The notes under the pieces were generated by a model. That model ran no database searches and was not told the origin of the DNA. It worked only from the letters and a program-made list of their open reading frames with translations. From Patescibacteria group bacterium (GTDB lineage Bacteria; Patescibacteriota; UBA1384; DATEAH01), in assembly GCA_035288465.1 (NCBI GenBank), contig DATEAH010000009.1, positions 11,951-75,950 of the forward strand: a DNA stretch of 64,000 nucleotides, written 5' to 3'. Below are positions 7,441-52,497 of this stretch, in pieces. Every line of letters begins with the position of its first letter. The first letter of the stretch is position 1. Made by a program: the position numbers and the translations under genes.

Positions 7441-7461
7441 TATGCTCCTTTAGGGTAAATC

Positions 7462-7598
7462 ATAATTTCTAAATTCTAAATCCTAAACAATATTAAAATT
7501 CAAAAGTCCAAATATCCCAAACATGTTTGAAATATTGTATTTTAGAAATTTGAATTTGTTTAGTATTTGGTGCTTAGGATTTCGGATTTCTTCAAAAG
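7462..7598. repeat. AT-rich palindromic dispersed repeat, copy 1 (arms ~CTAAATCCTAAACAA … TTGTTTAG..TAGGATTTCGGATTT); right arm supplies the last codons of the NUDIX gene
   Basis: Imperfect inverted arms around ~70 bp; same arm sequences recur at 20.65k, 42.55k, 52.35k and inside leuS. Confidence 0.5.
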
Positions 7599-8051
7599 CA
7601 AAATTGCTTTTGAAACGATTGGCTTTAAATCTTTATATTTAATTAATTTTTCAGCCTCAATTATTGGTAACCATTTCGCATCTCTAATTTCATGTTTTTG
7701 AATTTTTAAAGCATCTTGCGGATCAGCTTTAACTAAAAAATATTCCACAATTTTAAAAATTGGTTGACCCTTAAGTCGAAAAAAATATTTTGCTTTTCCA
7801 ATTTTTTCAATAATTTCTAATTTCACCAAACCGGTTTCTTCGGAAATTTCCCGTAAAGCCGCATGGGTCATTTTTTCTTTGATTTCCGGATGACCCTTTG
7901 GCAAGGCCCATTTTCCATAAGAATCCTTAATCACTAATATTTCAAATTTATTTTTTAAATCGTGGCTTTCAATTTTCCTATAAACCACCCCACCCGCGGA
8001 AATTTCAAATTTAGTCTTGGGTTTATTCAATTTTTTATTTTCACTCTGCAT
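7560..8051 (-). CDS. NUDIX hydrolase
   Basis: Nudix box GHPEIKEKMTHAALREISEETGL; start taken at MQSEN (track ORF starts further upstream at 8108). Confidence 0.8.
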   Translation of the reverse strand: MQSENKKLNKPKTKFEISAGGVVYRKIESHDLKNKFEILVIKDSYGKWALPKGHPEIKEKMTHAALREISEETGLVKLEIIEKIGKAKYFFRLKGQPIFKIVEYFLVKADPQDALKIQKHEIRDAKWLPIIEAEKLIKYKDLKPIVSKAILLLKKSEILSTKY

Positions 8052-8514
8052 TTTTACTTTTTGCTCTTTTATTTTCAAATTTATTATCATCTTCTTTGAC
8101 ATAAACATCTGAATGGCGATAAATTGTCCCTAAAACACCGTTCACAAATTTAGAACTATTTTCCCCTCCAAAATTTTTAGCAATTTCAACCGCTTCATCT
8201 ATGGCAACTTTTGGCGGCACGCGCTTATCTTTATCTTCGTACAAAAGCTCAAAAACTGCAATTCTCAGTACGTTTTTATCAACTCGAGCAATTTGTTCTA
8301 ACGGCCATTCTGGGGCGGAATCGGCAATTAATTTATCAATCTCCTTGGTATGTTTGATGACACCCGAAATCGTATTTTTTACAAAATCTTCATCCGTATT
8401 TGGTTTTTCGGTAAAATTTCGATTTAAAATTTCCGTCAATTTTGCCGATGGCCTAAGATCAAATTCGTATAAAGACTGCATTGCGCAAATACGAGATTGA
8501 TGACGATTTGCCAT
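8041..8514 (-). CDS. nusB: transcription antitermination factor NusB
   Basis: MANRHQSRICAMQSLYEFDL… NusB N-terminus and overall helical profile. Confidence 0.85.
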   Translation of the reverse strand: MANRHQSRICAMQSLYEFDLRPSAKLTEILNRNFTEKPNTDEDFVKNTISGVIKHTKEIDKLIADSAPEWPLEQIARVDKNVLRIAVFELLYEDKDKRVPPKVAIDEAVEIAKNFGGENSSKFVNGVLGTIYRHSDVYVKEDDNKFENKRAKSKNAE

Positions 8515-10773: not shown

Positions 10774-10993
10774 GATTTTAGTACAAAAAAATCCAAAATT
10801 ATATTTTTTGGATTTAAAAACGATAAAGGCTGGCATAGGTGGATTCTGAAAGAGAGGATCAACAGAGCGAACTCTGTTGAAGATTCTTTCAGGCCTATGT
10901 CAGCCTTCTGGACATCAAGCTCTTGGGGAGCCTGATGTTAGTAGTTTAGGTTAGAACGGGGGTGTTGGTGGGTGGGGTGTGCCCCAGGTTGGG

Positions 10994-11958
10994 CTACCCC
11001 TCGCGGAGGAAGCTGTTGCGGGTGCGGGTGGGTTTGTTCTGCCGAGCGGCACGGCGAATCTCCTTGCCGTTCTCGGCGTTGCGCTTGGCATCGCGGCGGG
11101 AAGTGGGGCGGGAAGTGGAGGCCGGTGCGGCCTGAGTAGTGGTCTGTTCCAGGTAGGGACCCACATCGCCGTACTCGCGGTGATCAGCCTTGGCGATGAT
11201 CAGCCGAAGACCAGTACCGTTCATGCGGTCCTGTACCGCGGCCACGAGACCCTCCCCGCGCTCACGCGAACGCAGGTACATACCGGCGTTCTTGAGCGCC
11301 GTTGCGACCTCGTTCCATGTCTCCTGCCATTGCGCGCCCTGAGCGAAATACGAGTGGGCACGTTCAAGCTCGACGGGGAAGCCGTCGGCTTCGGCCTTGG
11401 AGATGAACTTCTCGACGGACTGTCTGGCGGCAGTCTCGTTGCCCTGGAAGACCTCGCTGGCAACGCCGAGAAGTTCGGCGAGGCACGTCTCGAACTCGTC
11501 GTGGCTCATCGCAGCGACGGTCTGTCCCTCCCACGCATAGGAGGGTTCGAACTCGCGAGACGGCAGCTCAGCCTGTGTGGCCGATGCCGTCGCTGCGTCC
11601 GTGTCGGCGCAGACGTCGTCTGCGGTCTCGGTCTGTGTCTCGGCCGCGGGCTCTGCAGACTCAGCGACGGGTGTCGCTTCAGCCGCAGGCGCGGTTTCGG
11701 GGGTGGGGGCCATCTCGGCCTCGGACCCACCCTCGTCGCTCGGTGCCGGAGGGATCTCCTCCTCTACAGGAGCAGGAGGGATCACCTCTTCGGCGGCAAT
11801 GAGCTTCGTTTCGCGAAGATCGAACCACGAAGCCCAACCGTCGTTGGCGGCGCGGAGCTTGGCGACGCCGTCGGTGTTCTCATCGCAGACCTGACAGAAC
11901 TCCGTCAGAGTCTGTGCCCCCTGAAGGGCAGTCGAAAGATCAGCGAGAGTCAAAGACA
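10994..11958 (-). CDS. hypothetical acidic protein (Pro/Ala/Glu-rich central low-complexity region), high GC
   Basis: GGAGG RBS then ATG at 11958 (MSLTLADLS…); ~62% GC; no family recognised. Confidence 0.45.
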
Positions 11959-12365
11959 TTATTGAACCTCCAGTGGTGCTATATTCCCTCCGCTTAAGCG
12001 CGAGGGTTTGTAACCTTGGAGCATGATCACGTCGAGTATGTAAACGAGTTAGTACGACAAATCTAACTCGAGACTTTTCCAGACCTTGGATGTACAAGTT
12101 GCGATTAAGTCAAGTTGTGAAGGAACCGAGTTGATCTGGCAAACAGCGTGAAGCTGAAATAATACCATTACAACATATGCGTATATTATAGCAAATAATA
12201 ATTTATTTGTCAAGAGTTATAGGAATAAAATCTCAGAAAATAATTTAGGCTCATAAAAAACGAACAGGGTGGGCAGAAAATCTCGGGTTGATAGCTGAAA
12301 GCTATCAAGCTTTGAAATTCTACCCACCCTTGGGTAAATTGTCAGATCCGACCGAAGTCGAATCA

Positions 12366-13028
12366 TTAGTCATCGGGTACGGGCGGAATCGGTTCAAGTG
12401 TTGGAGTTGACGGGGCTGGAGGTGCGGGGGTTGGTGGCGTTGGTGTAGTGTCGGCGGTGGGACCAACAGTCGCGCCAGCGGCGAACCGAGTCCGATTGGT
12501 GACCCGGGTGGTGTATCTGATGTACACAGAATTCCGGGCCGGGATCTCGGTGACCCCAAAGTCAGACAAGGAGGCATCCCCACCAAAGAGTCGAGCAAGT
12601 TGCTCGTCCGAAATGGGGATGTCTTCGCCGTCCCGGCCGATGTTAAGCAGACCGGAACCGGCCACCAAGGTCGCGTCACCATGTAGATTGTCGGTGCCGC
12701 GAACCTCATCCGCACGGGTCGGGGTATACCCGGAGTTCTGCCAATCGAGGCGCCACCGGAGATAGTCCCCGACACCGGACTCGACATTCTCCTGCCAGCC
12801 TGAGCCGGCGGGAGTCCGAGTCAAGTTCCGGACAAGCTTGAACGTCCGGAGCGGAGGCGGGAGGATCACCCTCGAAGCAGCTCGCGCTTCCCGAATGGGG
12901 ATTCCCAGGAACCAACCCCGCAAGATATTGGTAATCCTGCGACCGGACCAGAACAGAAGCCACAGGAGCCAGGCAACGACTCCTGCTGCGACGACGGACA
13001 ATACCGTTACGAGTGTGGTCATTACCAT
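12366..13028 (-). CDS. hypothetical N-terminally membrane-anchored protein with Pro/Thr-rich C-terminus, high GC
   Basis: [29 protein letters not shown] helix; start overlaps stop of upstream collagen-like gene (ATGGTAATGA). Confidence 0.45.
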
Positions 13029-13702
13029 AACCTCCTGAGGTATTCCCGGATGCCGATGTACGCGCAGCCCAAGATTACGAAAATCAGGGCTACGATGGCA
13101 ACGAGTAGCCAAGGGCTGTCTCCTTGCCCATCGGGTGCGGACGGACCAGTCATTGTCTTGGATGCGAGGACCTGACGGTCTCGTGCCTCGACAAACGACT
13201 TTGAGACGACGCCGGATTTGATAGCCCATTCCGCGATGGTCTCAATGACCACGTGGCGCGATAGGCCATCTTGTCCGGCTGGTCCGCGAGGTCCGCGCGA
13301 ACCGCGACGTCCCAGACCCGAAGGTCCAGGTACGCCATCTTTGCCAGCAGGACCAGGAGCACCGTTTTGGCCGTTTAGACCAGGCGCCCCGTCCTTAACG
13401 GCAGGCCCCGGGATTCCCTGCGGACCCGGAGGTCCGGCAAGTCCGCCAGTTGACACCACCACTGGGGGTGGTGTTGTGTCCGGTGAGACCGGAGGCGCTA
13501 GAGTTTCCGGAGTCGAATTGACCTCCGGTTGCTCCACTGGAATCTCCACTGGGATGGTCGGCTGGTTGGGCTGATCAGTGCGCCCAAGGACTTTTACGTC
13601 CCGGGCGTCACCTTCGGCCCTTGCAACTTGCAACGAGGCCACCGCTGCCAGGAGGCAAGCGGCGACCCAGAGAACGAACTTGTGACGGTTCATCGCCGTC
13701 AC
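13022..13702 (-). CDS. secreted collagen-like (Gly-X-Y) repeat protein with C-terminal TM anchor, high GC
   Basis: Signal peptide [29 protein letters not shown]; [11 protein letters not shown]…[25 protein letters not shown] triplets; C-terminal hydrophobic helix. Confidence 0.55.
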
Positions 13703-13939: not shown

Positions 13940-16780
13940 TTAGATCACAAAATTTATTAAACGGTTTGGGACCCAGATCGTTTTTTTTATTTTTTTATCA
14001 GCCAATAACGCCAAAATATTTTTAGATTTTTTCGCCAGTTCAATTATTTCTTTTTCCGAAATTCCATTGACCACTGTTAATTTATCTCGAACTTTGCCAT
14101 TAATTTGCACTACTACCAAAATATCTTTAAGTTTGACTAATTTCTCATTAAACTCAGGCCATTGTTCTTCGAAAATGGGATTTTTATGTCCTAATTTTTG
14201 CCATAACTCTTCAGCCAAATGCGGAAATATCGGTGCCATTAAAATCAGGATTTTTTCACCAGGCTTTTTTTCGTGATTAAAATATTCCATCATTGCCGAA
14301 ATTGCGGTATTTAATCGAAAATTTTCTAAATCTTCTGTCACTTTTTTAATCGCATGATGTAGCAGTGGTGTTTCATTTTGACCAAATTTTGTCCCCCAGA
14401 CTTTTTTCAAAAACCTAAAAATACCCAAGATGCCAGAATCCATCCATTCCGAATCCTCATCAGCCGGACCGATAAACATTTCATAGCCGCGTAAAGCATC
14501 GGTGCCATATTTTGCCACCAATTCATCTGGCGAAACAATATTGCCTTTGGATTTGGACATTTTTGCACCTTGATAATAAATCATGCCAATGTTAAATAAT
14601 TTGCGAAATGGTTCGCCATCTGGATCAAAATTAGTTAATTTGAAATCGTGTAAAAATTTACAAATAAATCTCGCGTATAATAAATGCATCGTGGCGTGTT
14701 CAATACCACCAATATATAAATCAACCGGCAACCAAAACTCGGTTTTTTCCTCATCAAAAGCTTTTTCAGAGTTTTTCGCATCCGCGTATCTTAAATAATA
14801 CCAAGATGAACAAACAAATGTATCTAAAGTATCGGTTTCTCGTACAGCTTCGCCGCCGCATTTTGGACATTTGGTTTCTAAAAATTCTTTATCGTGTTTT
14901 AATGGAGAACCGCCAGTCGGTTTAAATTCAATCTCTTTTGGCAACACCACTGGCAGCTCATTTTCAGGTACAGCCATCTCACCGCACTTATTGCAATATA
15001 TAATAGGTATAGGGGCACCCCAATAGCGCTGCCTCGAAACCAACCAGTCTCGTAAATGATAAGTGGTGGTTTTTTTAGCTTCGCCCTTTTTCGCCAACGA
15101 GCTTGTAATCTTAATTTTTGCTTCATTAGAATCCAAGCCATCAAATTCACCCGAATTTATCAAAATTCCCGTCTCCTCATAAGCCAAATTTTCATGATCA
15201 ATTCGGTCAAACCACAAATCTAATTCTGCACAAGTCATTCTGGCTGGAGTAATTTGCTCGCGAGATAACCATTCAATCTCGTGTTTTTCTTTTTCTTCCG
15301 CAGAAACTGGTACGCGCTCGTCATCAATCAATTCAAAATACAAAGCATTCGTCATCGCCTGCCGATTGACATTTTTGTGAGCGGCATAATATTCGGAAAA
15401 AACCAGACCGCCTAAAAATCGAGTGAATTTAACATTCACAAAACCGGTTTCTTCTTTAATTTCTCTTTTGGCTGCCCCTACTAAATCTTCGCCATCTTTT
15501 GCGCCGCCAACCACAAAAGCGATCCAGGGTTGTTTTTTCCAATTCAAACAGAGGTATTTTTTAGTTTTTGGATTGAAAACTATGGCATGGACTGAATTTC
15601 TTTTGGCAATTTCTTTTCCGTCTTTGGGTGGATTTTTAGAATCAATTCGATGGGGGATAATGACATCTTTTATCGGTAAATCGTATTTCTTAGCAAATTC
15701 AAAATCGCGCTGGTCATGAGCTGGCACACACATAATTGCACCTGTCGCATAATCTCGCAAAACATAATCCGCGACCCAAACCGGGATTTTCTCGCCATTT
15801 ACCGGATTAACCGCGTATGCACCCGTGAAAACGCCAGTTTTTTCACGAGTCGTAGAAGTTCTTGCTATTTCCGAATATTTTCCGGCCTTTTCCACGTATT
15901 CCGCCACCGTCTTTTTTTGTTTAGGAGTAGTAATTTTAGCCACCATTTCGTGTTCTGGGGCCAAAACTAAATAAGTGGCGCCAAATAAAGTGTCGGGTCT
16001 GGTGGTAAACACCTCAATAAAATGTTTCGAATTTAATATTTGAGATTTAGGATTTGTTTCGAATTTCGAATTTCGAATTTCGAATTTAATCGTTACTCCC
16101 TCAGAGCGTCCAATCCAATTTTTTTGCAAGATCTTAGTTCGTGCTGGCCAATCAATTTTTCCCAAATCCGCTAATAACCGATCGGCATATTTAGTAATCT
16201 TAAAAAACCATTGTTTTAAATCTTTTTTGACCACTTTTGAACCGCAACGTTCGCATTCACTTGCCACCACCTGTTCATTAGCCAAAACCGTGTGGCAAGA
16301 TGGACAAAAATTAACCAAGGCTTTTTTGCGATATGCCAAACCCTGTTTATATAATTGCAAAAATAACCACTGCGTCCAGCGATAATAATCAGGGCTTGAG
16401 GTATTAATTTCTCGTTCCCAATCATATAATGAACCAATTTGTGCCAATTGTTCTTTAAATTTAGAAATCGCAGTCTCAGTAAATTCCGCCGGATGAGAAT
16501 TTTTTTTAATCGCCGCATTTTCCGCCGGCAAGCCAAAAGCATCAAAGCCCATCGGATGCAAAATATTTTTACCTTTTAAAATTTGATAGCGCGTCCAAAT
16601 GTCAGACAAAACATAGCCTCGCCAATGCCCCACATGCAAACCTTCCCCAGATGGATAAGGGAACATATCCAAACAATAAAATTTGGGCTTTTTAGAAAAA
16701 TCCACGGCCTGATTTAAATTATTCTTGGCCCAAACTTTTTGCCACCTGGATTCAATTTTTTGAGGATTATAATCTGTCAT
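13940..16780 (-). CDS. leuS: leucine--tRNA ligase carrying an inserted NUDIX domain (aa ~375-535) and a repeat-derived low-complexity insertion (aa ~231-254)
   Basis: HIGH (LHVGH), KMSKS, CP1 editing AHDQRDFEFA; Nudix box GGAKDGEDLVGAAKREIKEETGF between IKDVI and GILINSGEFDGL. Confidence 0.9.
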   Translation of the reverse strand: MTDYNPQKIESRWQKVWAKNNLNQAVDFSKKPKFYCLDMFPYPSGEGLHVGHWRGYVLSDIWTRYQILKGKNILHPMGFDAFGLPAENAAIKKNSHPAEFTETAISKFKEQLAQIGSLYDWEREINTSSPDYYRWTQWLFLQLYKQGLAYRKKALVNFCPSCHTVLANEQVVASECERCGSKVVKKDLKQWFFKITKYADRLLADLGKIDWPARTKILQKNWIGRSEGVTIKFEIRNSKFETNPKSQILNSKHFIEVFTTRPDTLFGATYLVLAPEHEMVAKITTPKQKKTVAEYVEKAGKYSEIARTSTTREKTGVFTGAYAVNPVNGEKIPVWVADYVLRDYATGAIMCVPAHDQRDFEFAKKYDLPIKDVIIPHRIDSKNPPKDGKEIAKRNSVHAIVFNPKTKKYLCLNWKKQPWIAFVVGGAKDGEDLVGAAKREIKEETGFVNVKFTRFLGGLVFSEYYAAHKNVNRQAMTNALYFELIDDERVPVSAEEKEKHEIEWLSREQITPARMTCAELDLWFDRIDHENLAYEETGILINSGEFDGLDSNEAKIKITSSLAKKGEAKKTTTYHLRDWLVSRQRYWGAPIPIIYCNKCGEMAVPENELPVVLPKEIEFKPTGGSPLKHDKEFLETKCPKCGGEAVRETDTLDTFVCSSWYYLRYADAKNSEKAFDEEKTEFWLPVDLYIGGIEHATMHLLYARFICKFLHDFKLTNFDPDGEPFRKLFNIGMIYYQGAKMSKSKGNIVSPDELVAKYGTDALRGYEMFIGPADEDSEWMDSGILGIFRFLKKVWGTKFGQNETPLLHHAIKKVTEDLENFRLNTAISAMMEYFNHEKKPGEKILILMAPIFPHLAEELWQKLGHKNPIFEEQWPEFNEKLVKLKDILVVVQINGKVRDKLTVVNGISEKEIIELAKKSKNILALLADKKIKKTIWVPNRLINFVI
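16019..16090. repeat. intragenic in-frame copy of the palindromic repeat family inside leuS, including (TTCGAAT)x4 7-bp tandem repeat
   Basis: Sequence …GAGATTTAGGATTTGTTTCGAATTTCGAATTTCGAATTTCGAATTT… matches arms of intergenic copies; encodes FEIRNSKFETNPKSQILNSKH. Confidence 0.5.
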
Positions 16781-18078: not shown

Positions 18079-18867
18079 TCATATCTTATTATTTAAACCC
18101 TTCATCTTTTTATCTATCTCATTATAAAGTTCTGAACCTACTTCCTCAAAAACTTTTAATAAATCTTCATAAGTATTTTTACCGCCAAGTAAATCCCAAA
18201 ATTCAACCCCAACCAAAACTTCTTCTTTCAAGTCAAAAAGTCCTTGCAATGTCCAACGCTCATATGGTTTTGGTTCGTAAGGATTATATGGAATAGCAAC
18301 GATTGTTTTAATTTTTGCTTTTGGGTTTTCACTACCGCGCATCGTAATCCAATCTAGCATTTGCTTTTTAATGCCGGTAAATTCGTTCATGTTTGGTTTT
18401 GCGCTTTTTAGTTCAAAATAATACTCTGTTTCGTCTTTCATTTCTATAAAAAGGTCAACGCGCTTTTTAAGTTTTTTTCCCATTTCGCCTTTGCCGGCTA
18501 CGGCCAATACTTCTTTCGTTTCTTTATCCTTATCAGGCGTTCGTGAAGCAAGACGTAATTCACGCATTATACTATCAATTTTCAAAACGGCTTCGCTACT
18601 GATATATCCTTCAAATCCTTTATATTGTCCTATTGCTTGTTTGGCTTTTGGCTCGGCGATTATTTTACCAACCTGCTCAAAAATTGATGTTCCAAGTATT
18701 GTGTTTACTGATTGAATAAAAGAGAATAACGCCATTCTATCTTTGCCGAGTAAACGAAAATGAAATGGCATTGAATTTGTCTCCGGATCATAAGTCGCCA
18801 ACTTTTGGCGGATTTTACTTACTAAATACTCCTTAATCTGTTTGCTTTGTTGAGTTGTGAGTGCCAT
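18079..18867 (-). CDS. putative type II restriction endonuclease (PD-(D/E)xK-like candidate)
   Basis: Starts 1 nt after the MTase stop on the same strand; possible VDLFIEMK catalytic motif; no firm family match by eye. Confidence 0.45.
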   Translation of the reverse strand: MALTTQQSKQIKEYLVSKIRQKLATYDPETNSMPFHFRLLGKDRMALFSFIQSVNTILGTSIFEQVGKIIAEPKAKQAIGQYKGFEGYISSEAVLKIDSIMRELRLASRTPDKDKETKEVLAVAGKGEMGKKLKKRVDLFIEMKDETEYYFELKSAKPNMNEFTGIKKQMLDWITMRGSENPKAKIKTIVAIPYNPYEPKPYERWTLQGLFDLKEEVLVGVEFWDLLGGKNTYEDLLKVFEEVGSELYNEIDKKMKGLNNKI

Positions 18868-18868
18868 A

Positions 18869-20458
18869 TTATTTTTCCTTTTTTAAGTGAAAAATTATTT
18901 CCGAATAAGGAGACTTGTCCCGTTCGGTTCTATTTAATACTGGTCGTTTAAATTGGTTTATAATTTTCATTCCAACTCGATCGGCAATTGTAGAATAAAG
19001 ATTGTATTTATCGTTTGCAACGATGAATACATCAAAATCATTAGCTAAAAATTTTCTACAATTAAGCAGAACTCTTGAAATTCCCTCAACATAAGATGCG
19101 CGCGCTTCCGTACTCTGACCTTTATAAAGCGGTCCTATCTCAAGCTCATCTCTGCGTTCAAATCCGAAAAGATCGTATGCATAAGCATGTTGCTCGTGAT
19201 AATCAATTTGACCAACATAGGGTGGTGAAGTAAAAATGCCATTGATTTTTTTCTTCTTTAAAACCTCGTAGAATTTTTTGTTTCTTTTTTTTACTTCTTC
19301 AAAAATATCCACCGTCCGAGAGTCTGCAGGAAGTATGGTATAATGTGCGTTTGTCTTTAGCTTTGTGAAGGTTCTGAGTCGATATACAGTATCAACTGCA
19401 TATCGATCGAACCACTCCTTTACTGAGAAAAGAGGCTTACAGATCTTTTTGTGTTTCCAGCAATAATAAGTTGTTATTTGCGGTTCTTTGAGGGTAGCTA
19501 AATCCGAGTGTGTCGTTGCGCGGCACGACCTTATCGTTCGACTCAAAATTATCGCTAATATCTTTTTATTCCTGACATCTTTTACTTTCTTGATTTGTTT
19601 AAATGCAAAATCAATTTCTTTGCGTATATTTTTAATATACCATTTGTCTAAGAAGTTTTTAGCGGAAAAATGATTTAATTCAATACCATATTTCTTAACG
19701 AGGCCGTTATAAATTTTCAAAAATTCTTTTTCTTTCTCTGTCGAGTATTTTTTTTCATCTATTTGTCTTCTTTGAACCTTATATTTGAATTCTGGACTTG
19801 GGAAGTATTTATTATTGAAATTTGTCATATGCATTAATAGCTCATTTTCAAAACTAGTAAGATTAATGTCAGCCTCGTAGTTTGTAATTGCTTGTCTTAT
19901 TTTTTCAACTTCGCTCTCAAGAGCTGGAAAATCATAATCGAGCAACTTTGTTTCTGTCATCATGCAATTAAAACGAGATATATCAATACCGATAGCATTT
20001 ATTCCCATTTCATGTGCTTGTACAAGTGTTGTTCCTGAACCGGAAAACGGATCAAGAACAATGTCGCCTGAATTAAAATAAACATCTTTTTTAAAATTGT
20101 CAGTATGGTTGTCAATAAAATATTGGACAAGTTGCGGAATAAACTTGCCTTTGTACGGATGCAAACGATGGACGTGCTTTGTCGTGTCCTTTTCTTTGAG
20201 GTGATCAAAGGACAATGCCCAATTCAAGTCATTACCAAGTCGTTTTTTCCAATCAATCTCTTGTTTTCCTCGATATGAATCATAATAATTTTTTAAATCG
20301 TTTAGATTAACAAAAATAGAAGCACCGCTATTGTGTTTTTTTATTTTCCCGTATTGAACTAAATACGAAATATTTGATTCGCTAATATCGCGCCTAAGGA
20401 AATCACTTGCCCAATGACTCGCTTCTTTAATTGTTAGAAGTTGTTTAGTTTGTTGCAT
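18869..20458 (-). CDS. DNA methyltransferase (N4-cytosine/N6-adenine type; SPPY motif IV and DPFSGSGTT motif I)
   Basis: VLDPFSGSGTTLVQA (AdoMet motif I) and IFTSPPYVGQIDY (motif IV). Confidence 0.8.
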   Translation of the reverse strand: MQQTKQLLTIKEASHWASDFLRRDISESNISYLVQYGKIKKHNSGASIFVNLNDLKNYYDSYRGKQEIDWKKRLGNDLNWALSFDHLKEKDTTKHVHRLHPYKGKFIPQLVQYFIDNHTDNFKKDVYFNSGDIVLDPFSGSGTTLVQAHEMGINAIGIDISRFNCMMTETKLLDYDFPALESEVEKIRQAITNYEADINLTSFENELLMHMTNFNNKYFPSPEFKYKVQRRQIDEKKYSTEKEKEFLKIYNGLVKKYGIELNHFSAKNFLDKWYIKNIRKEIDFAFKQIKKVKDVRNKKILAIILSRTIRSCRATTHSDLATLKEPQITTYYCWKHKKICKPLFSVKEWFDRYAVDTVYRLRTFTKLKTNAHYTILPADSRTVDIFEEVKKRNKKFYEVLKKKKINGIFTSPPYVGQIDYHEQHAYAYDLFGFERRDELEIGPLYKGQSTEARASYVEGISRVLLNCRKFLANDFDVFIVANDKYNLYSTIADRVGMKIINQFKRPVLNRTERDKSPYSEIIFHLKKEK

Positions 20459-20625: not shown

Positions 20626-20645
20626 AAATTTGTAAAAATCCTAAG

Positions 20646-20782
20646 CACGAAATCCTAAATCCTAAACAAACTCTAATGATCAAAATTTTAAATGTTTAAA
20701 ATCGGTTTTGAAAATTTGAATATTGGGATTTTGATATTGTTTAGAATTTAGATATTCGGATTTCGAATTTTCAACGAAGGTG
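20646..20782. repeat. AT-rich palindromic dispersed repeat, copy 2 (CGAAATCCTAAATCCTAAACAA … TTGTTTAGAATTTAGATATTCGGATTTCGAA)
   Basis: ~25-bp inverted arms around ~75 bp; right arm overlaps last codons of dgkA. Confidence 0.5.
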
Positions 20783-21133
20783 TGGCCAAAAAATAATAAT
20801 CCCTACCACCAGTGAAACGATAGACCACAATAAAACAAAACCGGCCATCATGTCTTTAATAATTTTAACGTCTAAATCATTTGAGGGATGAAAACGATCC
20901 AAGGTAAATTCGACTAAAGTGTTTAAGATTTCCGCCGCAATCGTTGATGTCACAAAAAGCAAAAGAATTAATTCCTTATTAAATTCCAATTGATAATACC
21001 AGGCTAAAAACATTACCAATATCCCGACTACCAGCATAATCCATAAATTTTGTTCAGTGACTAGCGATCGCCACAAACCAGACCAGGCGTAAAAAAAGCT
21101 TCCTTTAAATCTTTCCCAGCTTGAAAAAATCAT
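20771..21133 (-). CDS. dgkA: diacylglycerol kinase / undecaprenol kinase (DgkA family)
   Basis: 3-TM 120-aa protein; AAEILNTLVEFTLDRFHPSNDLDVKIIKDMMAGFV matches prokaryotic DAGK core. Confidence 0.65.
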   Translation of the reverse strand: MIFSSWERFKGSFFYAWSGLWRSLVTEQNLWIMLVVGILVMFLAWYYQLEFNKELILLLFVTSTIAAEILNTLVEFTLDRFHPSNDLDVKIIKDMMAGFVLLWSIVSLVVGIIIFWPHLR

Positions 21134-21181
21134 TTTCCCTCCTCCTAATTTTACCCAATTTGTACCTAAAAATCAATAAAT

Positions 21182-22498
21182 TTATATATTTTTAATAAAT
21201 TTTTCCGCTTCAACTTTAGTTTTTACTTTTTCTTCGAGCTGCGCATCCATTAAAGCTTCCATAATTTTTCCTACCTCAGGGCCAGATTCAATTTTTAAAA
21301 TTTTCATAATCTGATTACCATTTAATAGTGGAATAGGTGGTTGTGGTTTTTTCAATTCTGCCTGATATAATTTTAAAGAATAATTATACAAGGTTAAATC
21401 TTCAGGCATTGATCCTTGGCCATCAGCTTTCCAAACCGCCAATAAGTCGTGAATCCAAGGATGCCTTGCCCAGCGGATTTGTTTGGCCAATTTCATTTGC
21501 ATAATATCTTTGTGGCGTAAATGTTCGCGTACCAAAAAAACCACTTTTTCAGAAAATTTTCGTGGAAATTTTAACCTTTTCATAATCTTTTCTGTCATTT
21601 GCGCTGATAATTTAACATGGCCATAAAAAGTGATTCTTTTGCCATATTTTGGGTGTTCGCGGATTTTCCAGGTTTGCGGTTTGCCAATATCATGCAGTAA
21701 AACTGCCCAAATCACCGATAATTTTGCCTGGGCTGGAATTTTTTTCAATGATAAAATCGTATGAATCCAAACATCGCCTTCAGCATGAAAATTATTAGGC
21801 TGTGTTGAACCTTTGCCGTTTTCAAGCTCTGGCAAAAGATGATTTAAAATTTCTAATTTTGACAAATCTTCAATACTTTTAGTTCTGGAAGGATTTTTGA
21901 GCATTTTATTCAATTCATCTCGAATTCTCTCGGCAGATACCGAAATTACCAATTTCGCATTTTTACGAAGCGCTTTTTCGGTTTCTGGATCAAATTTAAA
22001 ACCCAAAGCATTTTTAAAACGAACCGCGCGCAAGATTCGCAAATGATCTTCGCCAATTCTTTTTTCGGGATTGCCAATAAATCGCAAGATCTTATTCTTA
22101 ATATCTTTTTGCCCGTCAACCCAATCGATTACTTTATTTGAAAGAGGATCATACAAAAGGGCATTAACCGTAAAATCTCGGCGTTTAACATCTTCTTCGG
22201 CGGTTGCCCAGGAGACTTGGGATGGTCGGCGAGAATCACGATAATCCGCTTCGGTGCGAAAGGTGGCGACTTCAAATTGATGTTTATTTTTGATCACCAA
22301 AATCACCCCAAATTTTTTCCCCACCGCCACGGTTTTAGAAAATAGTTTTTCGACTTCGTCGGGTTTTGCCGAGGTGACAATATCAAAATCATGGGGAGTT
22401 TTACCCATGACAATATCTCGTACGCACCCGCCAACCCAATAGACTTCGTGTCCGGCATTTTTGAGTTTTTTGACAATTTCCAAGGCTGTTTTTTTCAT
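21182..22498 (-). CDS. cca: CCA-adding tRNA nucleotidyltransferase with HD domain
   Basis: YWVGGCVRDIVMG…DFDIVT head motif; RRDFTVNAL; downstream HD-like LLHDIGK. Confidence 0.85.
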   Translation of the reverse strand: MKKTALEIVKKLKNAGHEVYWVGGCVRDIVMGKTPHDFDIVTSAKPDEVEKLFSKTVAVGKKFGVILVIKNKHQFEVATFRTEADYRDSRRPSQVSWATAEEDVKRRDFTVNALLYDPLSNKVIDWVDGQKDIKNKILRFIGNPEKRIGEDHLRILRAVRFKNALGFKFDPETEKALRKNAKLVISVSAERIRDELNKMLKNPSRTKSIEDLSKLEILNHLLPELENGKGSTQPNNFHAEGDVWIHTILSLKKIPAQAKLSVIWAVLLHDIGKPQTWKIREHPKYGKRITFYGHVKLSAQMTEKIMKRLKFPRKFSEKVVFLVREHLRHKDIMQMKLAKQIRWARHPWIHDLLAVWKADGQGSMPEDLTLYNYSLKLYQAELKKPQPPIPLLNGNQIMKILKIESGPEVGKIMEALMDAQLEEKVKTKVEAEKFIKNI

Positions 22499-38648: not shown

Positions 38649-40028
38649 TTGGCGGAAGCAATCATCATGATAATTTTAGTAATTTTCGCCTTAGCCTTAA
38701 TTATTTTTTCATTTCTAAAACCCAAATGGGCGTTTTATTTGTTATTAGCTTTAATTCCCTTCCATGCTTTTTTATTCACCACTTTCAATGAATTATTAAA
38801 TTTAACTGGCCGCAGTTCGCAAATTCTGGCTTCTTGGAAAGAAATTATTATGTTCGGTTTGATTTTGCGCATTTTATGGCAAATTGTTAAGACTCGAAAA
38901 CCACCCTTTAAAATTTTATTTGTCGACAAAATTATTGCTTTATTGTTTTTACTCGGCATTTCCACCATGATCTTTTTCTTGATTCCGCTCAAATCTGCTT
39001 TTTGGGGATTTCGATTTGATTTTGAGATGTTTTTAATTTATTTCCTAGCTCGCTCCTATGTTTGGAAAAAACCTGAAATTCAAAAATCAGTCCTAATAAT
39101 TTTATCATCAGCCATGATTGTGGCTCTTTTTGCATTGTTGCAAGCCTGGTTTCTGCCGGCCGATTTTCTGACTCATTTCGGTTATTCATCAGGAGTAAAT
39201 TGGCAACAAGCGATCGCTTTGCCGGCTTATCAAACCATTGGCGCCTCAAATGTGGTGCGCATGCAATCATTTTTAGCTGGTCCAAATCAATTAGGCTCGT
39301 ATTTATTAATCCCAATTTTTATCAGCCTGGTGTATTTAATTTCTGCAAAAAGTAACAAATTAAAATTACTGTTAACTGTTTACTGTTTACTGTTAATTTT
39401 TTCTTTATTTTACACCTATTCCCGTTCCGCATGGTTGGCATTTGCCGCAGGTTTGGTGGTTTTAATTTTAATAAAAATCAAACAGCGTTACCCACTCAAA
39501 ACATTTTTAATCACCATGTCTGCAATTTTTGTAGTTTTAATAGGATTGTTGATTTTTATCCAATATCAACCCTTTGGTATTAAATTTGCCGATGTATATA
39601 TTAATCATCAAGGCTCAAATTTGGAAAGATTTAGCCGGCTTCAAGCCTCTTTTGAAACTATTATTAAAACACCGTGGGGTTTGGGAATCGGACAAGCTGG
39701 GCAAGCTCAACTTCATTCCATGAGTGCTACGGCTTTAATTTCAGAAAATTGGTATTTGCAAATTGGCGTTGAATTGGGAATTTTGGGTTTGATAATTTAT
39801 TTGCTCGTTATCTACCACTTTCTTAAAAATTTATGGCAAACCTTAAAATTTTTAACTGGAAAATTTGGCCACGATCTTAGTCTGGCGGTATTTTCAGGAT
39901 TTATCGTTCTTTCTTTGCACGCGATGTTTTTACACACTTGGTCTGATATTTCCACCGCTTTAACCTTTTGGTTTTTGGTCGGCTTGATTTTGACACAGAC
40001 ATCTACAAAATTACAAAAAAGTACATAA
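38649..40028 (+). CDS. O-antigen ligase/polymerase-like polytopic membrane protein
   Basis: ~10-12 TM helices with a large periplasmic loop; context with GT2 and TagA genes. Confidence 0.55.
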   Translation: MAEAIIMIILVIFALALIIFSFLKPKWAFYLLLALIPFHAFLFTTFNELLNLTGRSSQILASWKEIIMFGLILRILWQIVKTRKPPFKILFVDKIIALLFLLGISTMIFFLIPLKSAFWGFRFDFEMFLIYFLARSYVWKKPEIQKSVLIILSSAMIVALFALLQAWFLPADFLTHFGYSSGVNWQQAIALPAYQTIGASNVVRMQSFLAGPNQLGSYLLIPIFISLVYLISAKSNKLKLLLTVYCLLLIFSLFYTYSRSAWLAFAAGLVVLILIKIKQRYPLKTFLITMSAIFVVLIGLLIFIQYQPFGIKFADVYINHQGSNLERFSRLQASFETIIKTPWGLGIGQAGQAQLHSMSATALISENWYLQIGVELGILGLIIYLLVIYHFLKNLWQTLKFLTGKFGHDLSLAVFSGFIVLSLHAMFLHTWSDISTALTFWFLVGLILTQTSTKLQKST

Positions 40029-42418: not shown

Positions 42419-42532
42419 CAAAAAAATTAACCGGGCTTATAATAAAAATGATCTGGTGGCTTTTGGCCACCTCATTTTTTACCAAAATCCTTTGCTGAAA
42501 TTAATAATATTTGATATAATATATGTAAGGAA

Positions 42533-42658
42533 ATTCTAAATACTAAATCCGAAATCCTAAACAAATTCAAAATTCTAATTTCCCAATTTTCTAAACTATT
42601 TAGCAGATATAATTTGGGTCATTGAAATTTGTTTAGAGATTAGAAATTAGAATTTGAC
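42533..42658. repeat. AT-rich palindromic dispersed repeat, copy 3 (AAATCCGAAATCCTAAACAAATT … AAATTTGTTTAGAGATTAGAAATTAGAATTT)
   Basis: Same arm sequences as copies at 7.5k and 20.7k; fills tagA-nusA intergenic. Confidence 0.5.
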
Positions 42659-52137: not shown

Positions 52138-52340
52138 CTATATTATAACAGATTTGTCAAATTATTATAATTTAAAACAATGATTGTTCAAAAAAGTCAA
52201 TTCTTGACAAGATTTGTCATAGGATTATACTAAAAATAGATGTATAACATTGTGTATAACTTTTAATTTTGATAATTTAGTCGGCGAGTTTAAGGTTGCC
52301 CCTCCTTCTTAAACTCGCCCATAGAATTATCAAAGTAAAT

Positions 52341-52465
52341 CAAATCCGAAGCACTAAATCCGAAACAATTTCTAAATCACAAAATCGCAAATCATAAACG
52401 AGTTTAGAATTTGAAAAATTAGAATTTAAAATTTGTTTAGAAATTAGATATTAGAAATTATGATT
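52341..52465. repeat. AT-rich palindromic dispersed repeat, copy 4 (AAATCCGAAGCACTAAATCCGAAACAATTTCTAAATC … AAATTTGTTTAGAAATTAGATATTAGAAATT)
   Basis: Same arm family; immediately upstream of lexA. Confidence 0.5.
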
Positions 52466-52497
52466 TCTCCGTCAAAAGAGGGCAAAGGAGGTTTAAA

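Follow-up and report, generated by a model that had tools for sequence, protein, structure and literature searches.

The 64,000-nucleotide (nt) stretch of Patescibacteria DNA considered here (contig DATEAH010000009.1, positions 11,951 to 75,950; hereafter the window) carries on its minus strand, at 13940–16780 in the list of open reading frames (ORFs), a 946-residue ORF that is leuS, the gene for leucyl-tRNA synthetase (LeuRS). LeuS is a single essential gene. Its product has the make-up of a bacterial-type LeuRS, namely a class I catalytic core, a CP1 editing domain, and an anticodon-binding domain, in which Pfam recognizes PF00133 (tRNA-synt_1), PF13603 (editing, residues 220–382), PF09334, and PF08264 (Anticodon_1). 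The translation contains the FTTRPDT and KMSKS motifs, the region matches the LeuRS of T. thermophilus (1H3N) with E=2.7e-48, and the whole protein is 100% identical to HLC39123.1 from a Patescibacteria metagenome-assembled genome (MAG). Inside this gene, at 16024–16087 on the minus strand, lies a single 64-nt repeat arm that is read in frame and that aligns with the arms of four intergenic palindromes dispersed through the window.

Read on the coding strand from 16087 to 16024, the arm consists of (AAATTCG)x4, AAACAAAT, and CCTAAAT CTCAAAT ATTAAAT TCGAAAC; it is preceded by ATT and followed by ATTTT ATT GAG GTG. It encodes K232–H253, and the region translates as I-KFEIRNSKFETNPKSQILNSKH-F-IEV, after which comes FTTRPDT. 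Tandem Repeats Finder reports a perfect tandem heptamer tract at 16057–16087 on the minus strand (period 7, 4.4 copies, 100% matches, score 62), with the unit TTTCGAA on the plus strand and AAATTCG on the coding strand, and this tract encodes KFEIRNSKFE. Stop codons are absent from all six frames of (AAATTCG)n, (AAATCCG)n, and (AAATTCC)n and are present in the T-ending heptamers (AAATCCT, AAATTCT) that dominate the intergenic copies of the window. The leuS copy has a tract built solely of the stop-free AAATTCG unit and a distal half whose only open frame is the one in use, so that the module is read through.

The four intergenic elements, E1–E4, are imperfect palindromes of about 125–135 nt that fold as long hairpins and whose arms have a 7-nt periodicity. 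E1 (7457–7590, two arms, hairpin z=−3.4) contains the end of a NUDIX-family ORF at 7560–8108 on the minus strand, E2 (20636–20770, hairpin z=−3.9) lies between the minus-strand ORF 20771–21133 and a tRNA-Ala gene, E3 (42530–42655, z=−2.3) separates two plus-strand genes, and E4 (52340–52466, z=−1.7) occupies a divergent intergenic region. In a MAFFT alignment, the leuS coding strand from 16087 to 16024 runs without gaps against all eight A-rich-oriented arms of these elements. The arms and the leuS copy share one architecture: four AAATYCN heptamers, a AAACAAAT hinge, about four looser heptamers, and a terminal AAAC. An nhmmer profile trained on the eight intergenic arms alone, with the leuS copy excluded, matches leuS at 16029–16087 on the minus strand (31.2 bits, E=1.2e-8). 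This is the sole profile match in the 64 kb beyond the training arms; the runner-up (E=0.08) falls on the opposite strand of the same site. Identity to the intergenic arms is 0.57–0.67 for the leuS copy and 0.55–0.74 from arm to arm, which makes the leuS copy as typical a member as the other arms, and the right arm of E2 (20713–20770) is 76% identical to leuS 16030–16087. At the level of sequence, the leuS segment is a copy of the dispersed repeat, and the similarity is real by formal test.

The two arms of one element resemble each other with an identity of 0.60 versus 0.65 across elements. Co-variation of arms within an element, a sign of selection for pairing, does not exceed between-element similarity, which suggests that the single arm is the evolutionary unit of the repeat family. 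The leuS copy is such a solo arm: there is no partner arm near leuS to complete a two-arm long hairpin, and the leuS mRNA segment folds no better than shuffled sequences (z=−0.9).

Several further observations concern the elements themselves. The NUDIX-family ORF extends about 30 nt into E1 (7560–7590), and its last residues and stop (KKSEILSTKY*) are element-derived, a second case in the window of residues encoded by an element. A separate, GC-richer inverted repeat with 32-nt arms, 81% complementarity, and a 13-nt loop lies directly upstream of E4 (52263–52339). On inspection, no direct repeats are evident bordering E1–E4 or the leuS arm. Rfam at gathering thresholds finds only three tRNAs in the window and no known RNA family covering the elements. 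Resemblances to heat-shock-element-like GAAnnTTC and to CsrA GGA motifs were dropped on spacing and sequence, by inspection.

The residues between the WIGxSxG and FTTRPDT motifs, here termed the spacer, were counted in 120 LeuRS homologs, and number 29 in the window LeuRS versus a mode of 16. The nearest LeuRS in a collection of 5.8 billion proteins (P0006, encoded on sister contig L137) shares with the window protein 72% identity in the N-terminal half by BLASTP and 75% in a masked alignment, and it has an ordinary 16-residue spacer whose DNA is non-periodic, with no heptamer signal; the arm profile has no match in the 22 kb around its leuS. Alignment to 1H3N leaves a 13-residue gap between residues 241 and 242, the counterpart of which is the turn of a hairpin (EILFPVEGKEV/RIPVF) at the entry to the editing domain. 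The net gain is therefore 39 nt, or the 13 codons T242–F254 (TNPKSQILNSKHF), at 16019–16057 on the minus strand, with an approximate gap placement. The first four arm codons (KFEI) replace the native beta-strand (xFxI) and add no length. A protein search with a 63-residue query across the insert returned only short insert-less LeuRS fragments and was uninformative.

An AlphaFold2 model of the window LeuRS, built with 55 homologs, has a mean predicted local distance difference test score (pLDDT) of 90.3, and the score drops below 50 only at residues 243–250, between strands 225–236 and 254–259. The model places the extra residues at the exposed tip of the first beta-hairpin of the editing domain, and the tip, longer by 13 residues, is probably disordered. 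Other LeuRSs have unrelated insertions at the same loop, with spacers of 14–43 residues, repeat-like peptides of other kinds (P0056, P0059, P0064, and P0085), and other periodic or palindromic DNA, such as (ATGTCAG)n at locus L008 and two short palindromes at locus L006. Such inserts make it evident that the loop tolerates insertions.

Much of what an earlier note on this DNA had claimed is thereby borne out. An in-frame repeat copy does lie at the start of the editing domain with a perfect 7-nt tandem repeat, of 4.4 copies by the present count, the interval 16019–16090 is exactly codons I231–F254 of leuS and the peptide IKFEIRNSKFETNPKSQILNSKHFIEV is as quoted, the match to the arms of the dispersed repeat holds, and the segment is an insertion rather than conserved LeuRS sequence. 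Two claims stand in part. The insertion had been sized at 72 bp, whereas the net gain against the modal spacer is 39 nt, and a palindromic element had been placed in the gene, where the family is right and the palindrome is not, a single 64-nt arm being present. The note did not take in two wider patterns described below, the recurrence of the arm at one codon register in LeuRSs of distant Patescibacteria and the spread of the family over many phyla.

The window LeuRS has a second inserted part. A NUDIX hydrolase domain (PF00293, E=6.5e-14) lies within the editing/CP1 region at residues 393–513 (window 15242–15604, minus strand). This insertion is common to many Patescibacteria LeuRS homologs, the closest relative P0006 is without it, and the homologs P0017, P0081, P0082, and P0118 carry an additional alpha/beta-hydrolase domain. 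One keyword search of the literature found no paper on a NUDIX domain inserted into LeuRS.

The account considered probable takes the leuS segment for a single arm, now translated, of the dispersed family of heptamer palindromes, acquired after the split from the nearest relative and retained as a tolerated passenger. It draws on what the sequences show of family membership, insertion relative to relatives, and position in the fold, as well as on stability over assemblies and recurrence in LeuRSs and other genes. Four other explanations bear on one or more of these observations and are weighed below where they do.

The repeat family extends far beyond the window. Species-representative genomes contain the exact 25-mer AAATTCGAAATTCGAAATTCGAAAC in at least 120 stretches, and the matches listed come from MAGs labeled Planctomycetota, Verrucomicrobiota, Acidobacteriota, Desulfobacterota, Gammaproteobacteria, Omnitrophota, Bacteroidota, many Patescibacteria, and others. 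Among these hosts are contigs of megabase size and a complete chromosome of 5.3 Mb, and the loci span 35–66% GC. The window-derived profile finds full arms in 46 and convergent arm pairs (palindromes) in 31 of the at least 120 loci listed. The module stays AT-rich in genomes of up to 66% GC, and a variant heptamer, AAGCACG, recurs as the second or third heptamer of arms in unrelated phyla (genome contigs L009–L128 and JGI metagenome contigs L138–L177) and in E1, E2, and E4. The 25-mer has no match in 2.9 million viral contigs, and a phage vector was dropped as an easy explanation of the cross-phylum spread on that ground. No published account of the AAATYCN family or of in-frame repeat insertions in Patescibacteria was found in a literature whose coverage was incomplete, so that absence is not proven.

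Real genes on low-GC contigs of Patescibacteria type frequently contain the tract or the complete arm in frame; the identities of these genes were judged by conserved motifs in translations. These hosts include transketolase-like, topA-like, murD-like, prmC-like, ribD-like, and tsaD-like genes and glycosyltransferases; a 31-mer search of JGI metagenomes returned 40 contigs, in which murC-like, ligA-like, and aminoacyl-tRNA synthetase (aaRS)-like genes are hosts. An N-rich junction pattern for further arm-bearing leuS genes had no match in the JGI metagenomes. Genic copies use all three frames and both orientations, which is possible because (AAATTCG)n, (AAATCCG)n, and (AAATTCC)n are stop-free, and solo arms or tracts predominate inside real genes. 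At 21152–21196 on the minus strand of L003, a tRNA-synt_2-family gene (EpmA/LysRS-like) carries an in-frame (AAATTCC)x4-AAACAAATCCC that encodes GKFQIPNSKFQTNPKSE. The window itself has an in-frame tract of another kind: (TTACTGT)x4.1, with 90% matches, at 39366–39402 on the plus strand of ORF 38649–40028, a Wzy_C/O-antigen-ligase-like membrane protein. It encodes LLLTVYCLLLI, and its heptamer is unlike that of the leuS family.

One alternative is that the leuS tract grew in place, by local heptanucleotide slippage from A/T-rich K-F-E-I codons, and that its likeness to the family reflects shared favored heptamers. Heptanucleotide repeats are reported to be the most abundant class of long simple sequence repeats in prokaryotes, for which polymerase slippage has been proposed (Mrazek et al. 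2007, as summarized in PMC4679880). The tract begins exactly at the native K-F codons, many other genes have the tract alone, without the hinge or distal half, and period 7 is the sole enriched short period at these loci (9 blocks versus 0 for periods 5, 6, and 8–11). Local growth is nevertheless a decidedly unlikely origin, as the gap-free match runs on past the tract and takes in the AAACAAAT hinge, the distal heptamers, and the final AAAC, most of the net gain lies in the non-tandem distal half, and tract length in the family is about four units rather than broadly distributed.

The length of the tract also bears on its stability. Eight consensus assemblies from different samples agree exactly in the tract and in the entire insert. 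Across leuS, seven of the eight differ by 0–1 substitutions and the eighth differs solely at the 3′ end; tract and insert are likewise unchanged throughout the protein cluster at ≥90% identity. Four heptamers precede the hinge in 78 of the 120 loci listed, a sharp peak among loci retrieved with a search pattern that required at least three heptamers. Judged by these sequences, the four heptamers ahead of the AAACAAAT hinge belong to the fixed design of the family and do not form a free-running microsatellite.

The tract does have the form of a phase-variable contingency locus of the kind found in Haemophilus, Neisseria, and Campylobacter, in which 7-nt slippage would toggle leuS or yield alternative products: it is a perfect tandem repeat within an ORF with a unit that is not a multiple of three. 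The earlier note was right that slippage would frameshift leuS, which holds for a shift of one or two units. It had posed a choice between a contingency locus and strong purifying constraint, and this dilemma mostly dissolves, given that four heptamers are the family norm and that the eight assemblies agree. The identical tract of these independent assemblies lends no support to a contingency locus; the assemblies and clusters show no length polymorphism, no expanded array is present, copy number is family-fixed, and leuS, as a single essential gene, differs from the surface or restriction-modification genes that are so regulated. A contingency role is most improbable. On a 116,608-nt ENA contig of the same organism, leuS is split into models of 275 and 668 residues (P0123 and P0124) at residues 275–279. 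The break lies outside the heptamer tract and probably stems from an error of assembly or sequencing or from a rare variant.

Besides the window LeuRS, four others have an insert of this type and spacers of 28–29 residues: P0017 (locus L001, 59% GC), P0073 (locus L003, a Candidatus Uhrbacteria MAG, 54% GC), P0088, and that of L103, a MAG labeled Saccharibacteria. In L001, L003, and L103, the three for which DNA was compared, arm length and codon register are the same as in the window. The arm of L103 reads (AAATTCG)x4 AAACAAATCCTAAACTCGAAATTCCAAATTCCAAAC, and that of L003 reads AAATTCC AAATTAC AAATCCC AAATCAC AAACAAAT. The arms of the window and L103 are pristine, and that of L001 is eroding toward the composition of its 59% GC host; pristine and decayed copies together fit insertion followed by neutral decay. 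The five arm-bearing LeuRSs are 55–62% identical to one another, arm-less relatives at 68–75% identity exist for those of the window, P0017, and P0073, and the arm-bearers are scattered in a neighbor-joining LeuRS tree. The pattern points to repeated, independent acquisition of the arm by distant LeuRSs, and from these sequences we infer gains rather than losses.

Low-complexity segments also occur at other leuS loops: KKSKIKNQKSKTQTKNQNNQN in L103, EISNFNFQISNI in L006, and LKSQVPNSKQSLS in L007. Heptamer periodicity or arm similarity was detected in the segments of L006 (11997–12041) and L007 (about 11974–11999), and the L103 peptide, from a partial leuS, is heptamer-like in appearance only. 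The leuS of L003 has two more heptamer-periodic in-frame segments (10838–10873 and 12691–12725), including a 6-residue insertion, VNVKCKMKNVKL. Patescibacteria LeuRS proteins may often have loops of repeat origin.

The same five proteins could be taken as heirs of one ancient vertical insertion, a 13-residue extension that arose once in an early Patescibacteria ancestor and was conserved as protein, the resemblance to the repeat being secondary. The shared spacer length and register in different lineages favor such a history, as does a peptide that is 62–85% identical between arm-bearers. It is opposed by the arm-less state of the closest relatives of three arm-bearers, all nearer to them than the arm-bearers are to each other, and it requires many precise reversions to a normal 14–16-residue hairpin. 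Third codon positions also speak against it. In the four leuS genes with DNA, third-codon-position identity is 0.54–0.81 in the arm versus 0.23–0.46 in flanking conserved codons, an excess that rules out protein-level conservation of an ancient insert as its cause. A single ancient origin is accordingly given a low probability.

The third-position excess is explicable either by independent acquisition from a conserved repeat family or by a constraint on the nucleic acid. Another view is that the arm is a functional element, kept for a DNA, mRNA, or peptide role, such as regulation of LeuRS synthesis or modulation of the editing-domain hinge; in one variant, the mRNA would serve as a binding array for a heptamer-binding single-strand protein, for example one with a cold-shock domain. 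High synonymous-site conservation between distant lineages, the fixed four-heptamer architecture, an AT-rich module conserved across phyla even in genomes of 60–66% GC, and recurrent placement in LeuRS all suit this view, and CspB binds one protein per heptamer, as cited in PMC4679880. A functional role, the variant included, is nonetheless unlikely, since the L001 copy is visibly decaying toward host composition, most LeuRSs, the nearest relative among them, do without the arm, and the peptide is predicted to be disordered. The module also lands in a wide range of unrelated genes, in any of the three frames and in either orientation, which is more in keeping with opportunism than with a role specific to leuS.

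Under the account of a translated arm carried as a passenger, the course of events would be as follows. The family module is a unit of about 64–66 nt with the heptamer, hinge, and AAAC architecture described above. Between genes, a pair of modules is arranged head to head as a long, imperfect hairpin, whereas leuS has one module, with its A-rich strand as the sense strand. The arm would have been acquired after the lineage split from its nearest sequenced relative and would have entered the turn of the first editing-domain hairpin, where the catalytic core passes into the CP1 editing domain, converting an xFxI-turn-xIxVF hairpin into one with a 13-residue longer, probably disordered tip. How a solo arm entered is a guess: recombination, gene conversion, or template switching with a dispersed copy may have been aided by A/T-rich K-F-x-I codons. 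Since then it would have persisted there as selfish or neutral DNA, a passenger in a surface loop that tolerates insertions, and not as a regulatory switch. Slippage variants that gain or lose one or two heptamers would put an essential gene out of frame and be eliminated by selection. Comparable independent events would also have taken place in other Patescibacteria.

Several points weigh against this account. The same length and codon register in at least four distant LeuRS lineages is hard to obtain from random insertion and selection, and may reflect an insertion mechanism that is targeted or guided by homology, or else some constraint acting on DNA, RNA, or peptide. The neighbor-joining tree is crude, and some gains could be shared. 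Some 16-residue Patescibacteria spacers are already loosely heptamer-like (for example, that of L007, KFQILKSKFQIEV), and part of the leuS arm could predate the 39-nt gain. Neither a target-site duplication nor a donor copy was found for the leuS arm, and the neutrality of the insert is a reading of the predicted structure and of decay in one lineage.

Rickettsia palindromic elements (RPEs), which the earlier note had invoked, are the closest known parallel. RPEs are dispersed repeats known as in-frame insertions in unrelated genes (Ogata et al. 2000, 2002, summarized in PMC10969869). Like them, the leuS family consists of dispersed short repeats that are found both between genes and in frame within unrelated, often essential genes, and that recur: the window holds four intergenic copies and one in-frame copy, with more in other genes and genomes. 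The insertion also adds a peptide at a fold-compatible position, with the leuS insert at a predicted hairpin tip, where the only residues of pLDDT below 50 (243–250) lie and where the insert aligns to the hairpin turn of 1H3N. The comparison holds for behavior and fails for insertion of a complete palindrome. RPEs are whole palindromes of about 100–150 bp and are confined to Rickettsia, whereas leuS has a single 64-nt arm with a net gain of 39 nt, from a heptamer-built family of Patescibacteria and many other phyla whose arm occupies the same site of the same protein in several distant lineages. Because both host and architecture differ, membership in the RPEs is excluded and the comparison is one of analogy only. 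By that analogy, the leuS case resembles RPE-like behavior in a new family and a new form.

Other repeat classes share fewer traits. Short palindromic repeats such as REP/BIME, ERIC, Correia, and MITE-like elements resemble E1–E4, which are intergenic imperfect palindromes capable of long hairpins. E1–E4 differ in that no target-site duplication or terminal signature, such as the GTAG/CGTC heads of REP, is evident. Further differences are that the arms are heptamer arrays, no more complementary to their own partners than to the arms of other elements, and that the family is cross-phylum rather than genus-specific. TIGR-Tas arrays are tandem interspaced arrays, not dispersed palindromes.

Heptamer arrays have been described elsewhere. 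TAACTGA arrays have a puzzling cross-phylum distribution in Beggiatoaceae and Cyanobacteria (PMC4679880), and Geobacter metallireducens has elements of four tandem heptanucleotides between and within genes, as well as sites of five tandem heptanucleotides drawn as opposite-strand pairs (PMC2700814). These systems and the leuS family alike comprise short, scattered arrays of a specific 7-mer, typically of 4–5 units, with a patchy phylogenetic distribution. The leuS family differs in its heptamer (AAATYCN), in the incorporation of the array into a larger module with a hinge and distal half, and in its regular in-frame read-through of essential genes; TAACTGA, by contrast, has stop codons in the forward orientation.

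A broader and more tentative proposal, considered possible rather than probable, is that an undescribed cross-phylum 64-nt module writes itself as a stop-free arm into surface loops of essential proteins of reduced Patescibacteria, in a register-preserving and possibly targeted manner, with the LeuRS hairpin as a preferred site that several lineages would have acquired independently. The proteins concerned would be LeuRS, other aaRS-like proteins, TopA, and MurC/D-like, LigA-like, and TsaD-like proteins, and the phyla Patescibacteria, Planctomycetota, Verrucomicrobiota, Acidobacteriota, Desulfobacterota, Omnitrophota, and others.

The remainder of the window has features of its own. Directly downstream of leuS, at about 11000–13700, an island of 61–64% GC stands in a genome of about 35–40% GC and holds overlapping ORFs, one of which is collagen-like (G-x-y repeats, with the Pfam Collagen domain just under threshold). 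A collagen-like gene is likewise found near leuS in sister contig L137. Chimeric assembly was rejected for the island, as every independent assembly has this junction and as L137 has its own such gene near leuS. At 18079–20458 on the minus strand, two adjacent ORFs resemble a type II restriction-modification pair, with Pfam N6_N4_Mtase and HinfI in matching assemblies. Between 54900 and 63600, several large genes are composed of 156-nt (52-residue) tandem units in 13–19 copies of 60–80% identity, with a recurring WR-EKR-LS-DGSLD--FG motif and higher-order repeats of about 2.6 kb, consistent with paralogous giant repeat proteins.

To our knowledge, in-frame colonization of essential genes by selfish repeats is textbook for Rickettsia only. 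The leuS case brings this Rickettsia-type behavior to Patescibacteria by way of a heptamer module used as a single arm. If the broader proposal is true, the module would be a second and much broader case of the “protein-coding palindromes” so far held to be special to Rickettsia, and a general source of new loops in Patescibacteria proteins. The conservation of the module as AT-rich DNA in 60–66% GC genomes of unrelated phyla, and its recurrence at one codon register of LeuRS, make directly testable the questions of how such modules spread, why heptanucleotide arrays are abundant in bacteria, and what share of the odd loops of Patescibacteria proteins is repeat-derived. In practical terms, marker genes of MAGs that contain such segments, aaRSs among them, can be misaligned, misplaced in phylogenies, or given wrong domain annotations.

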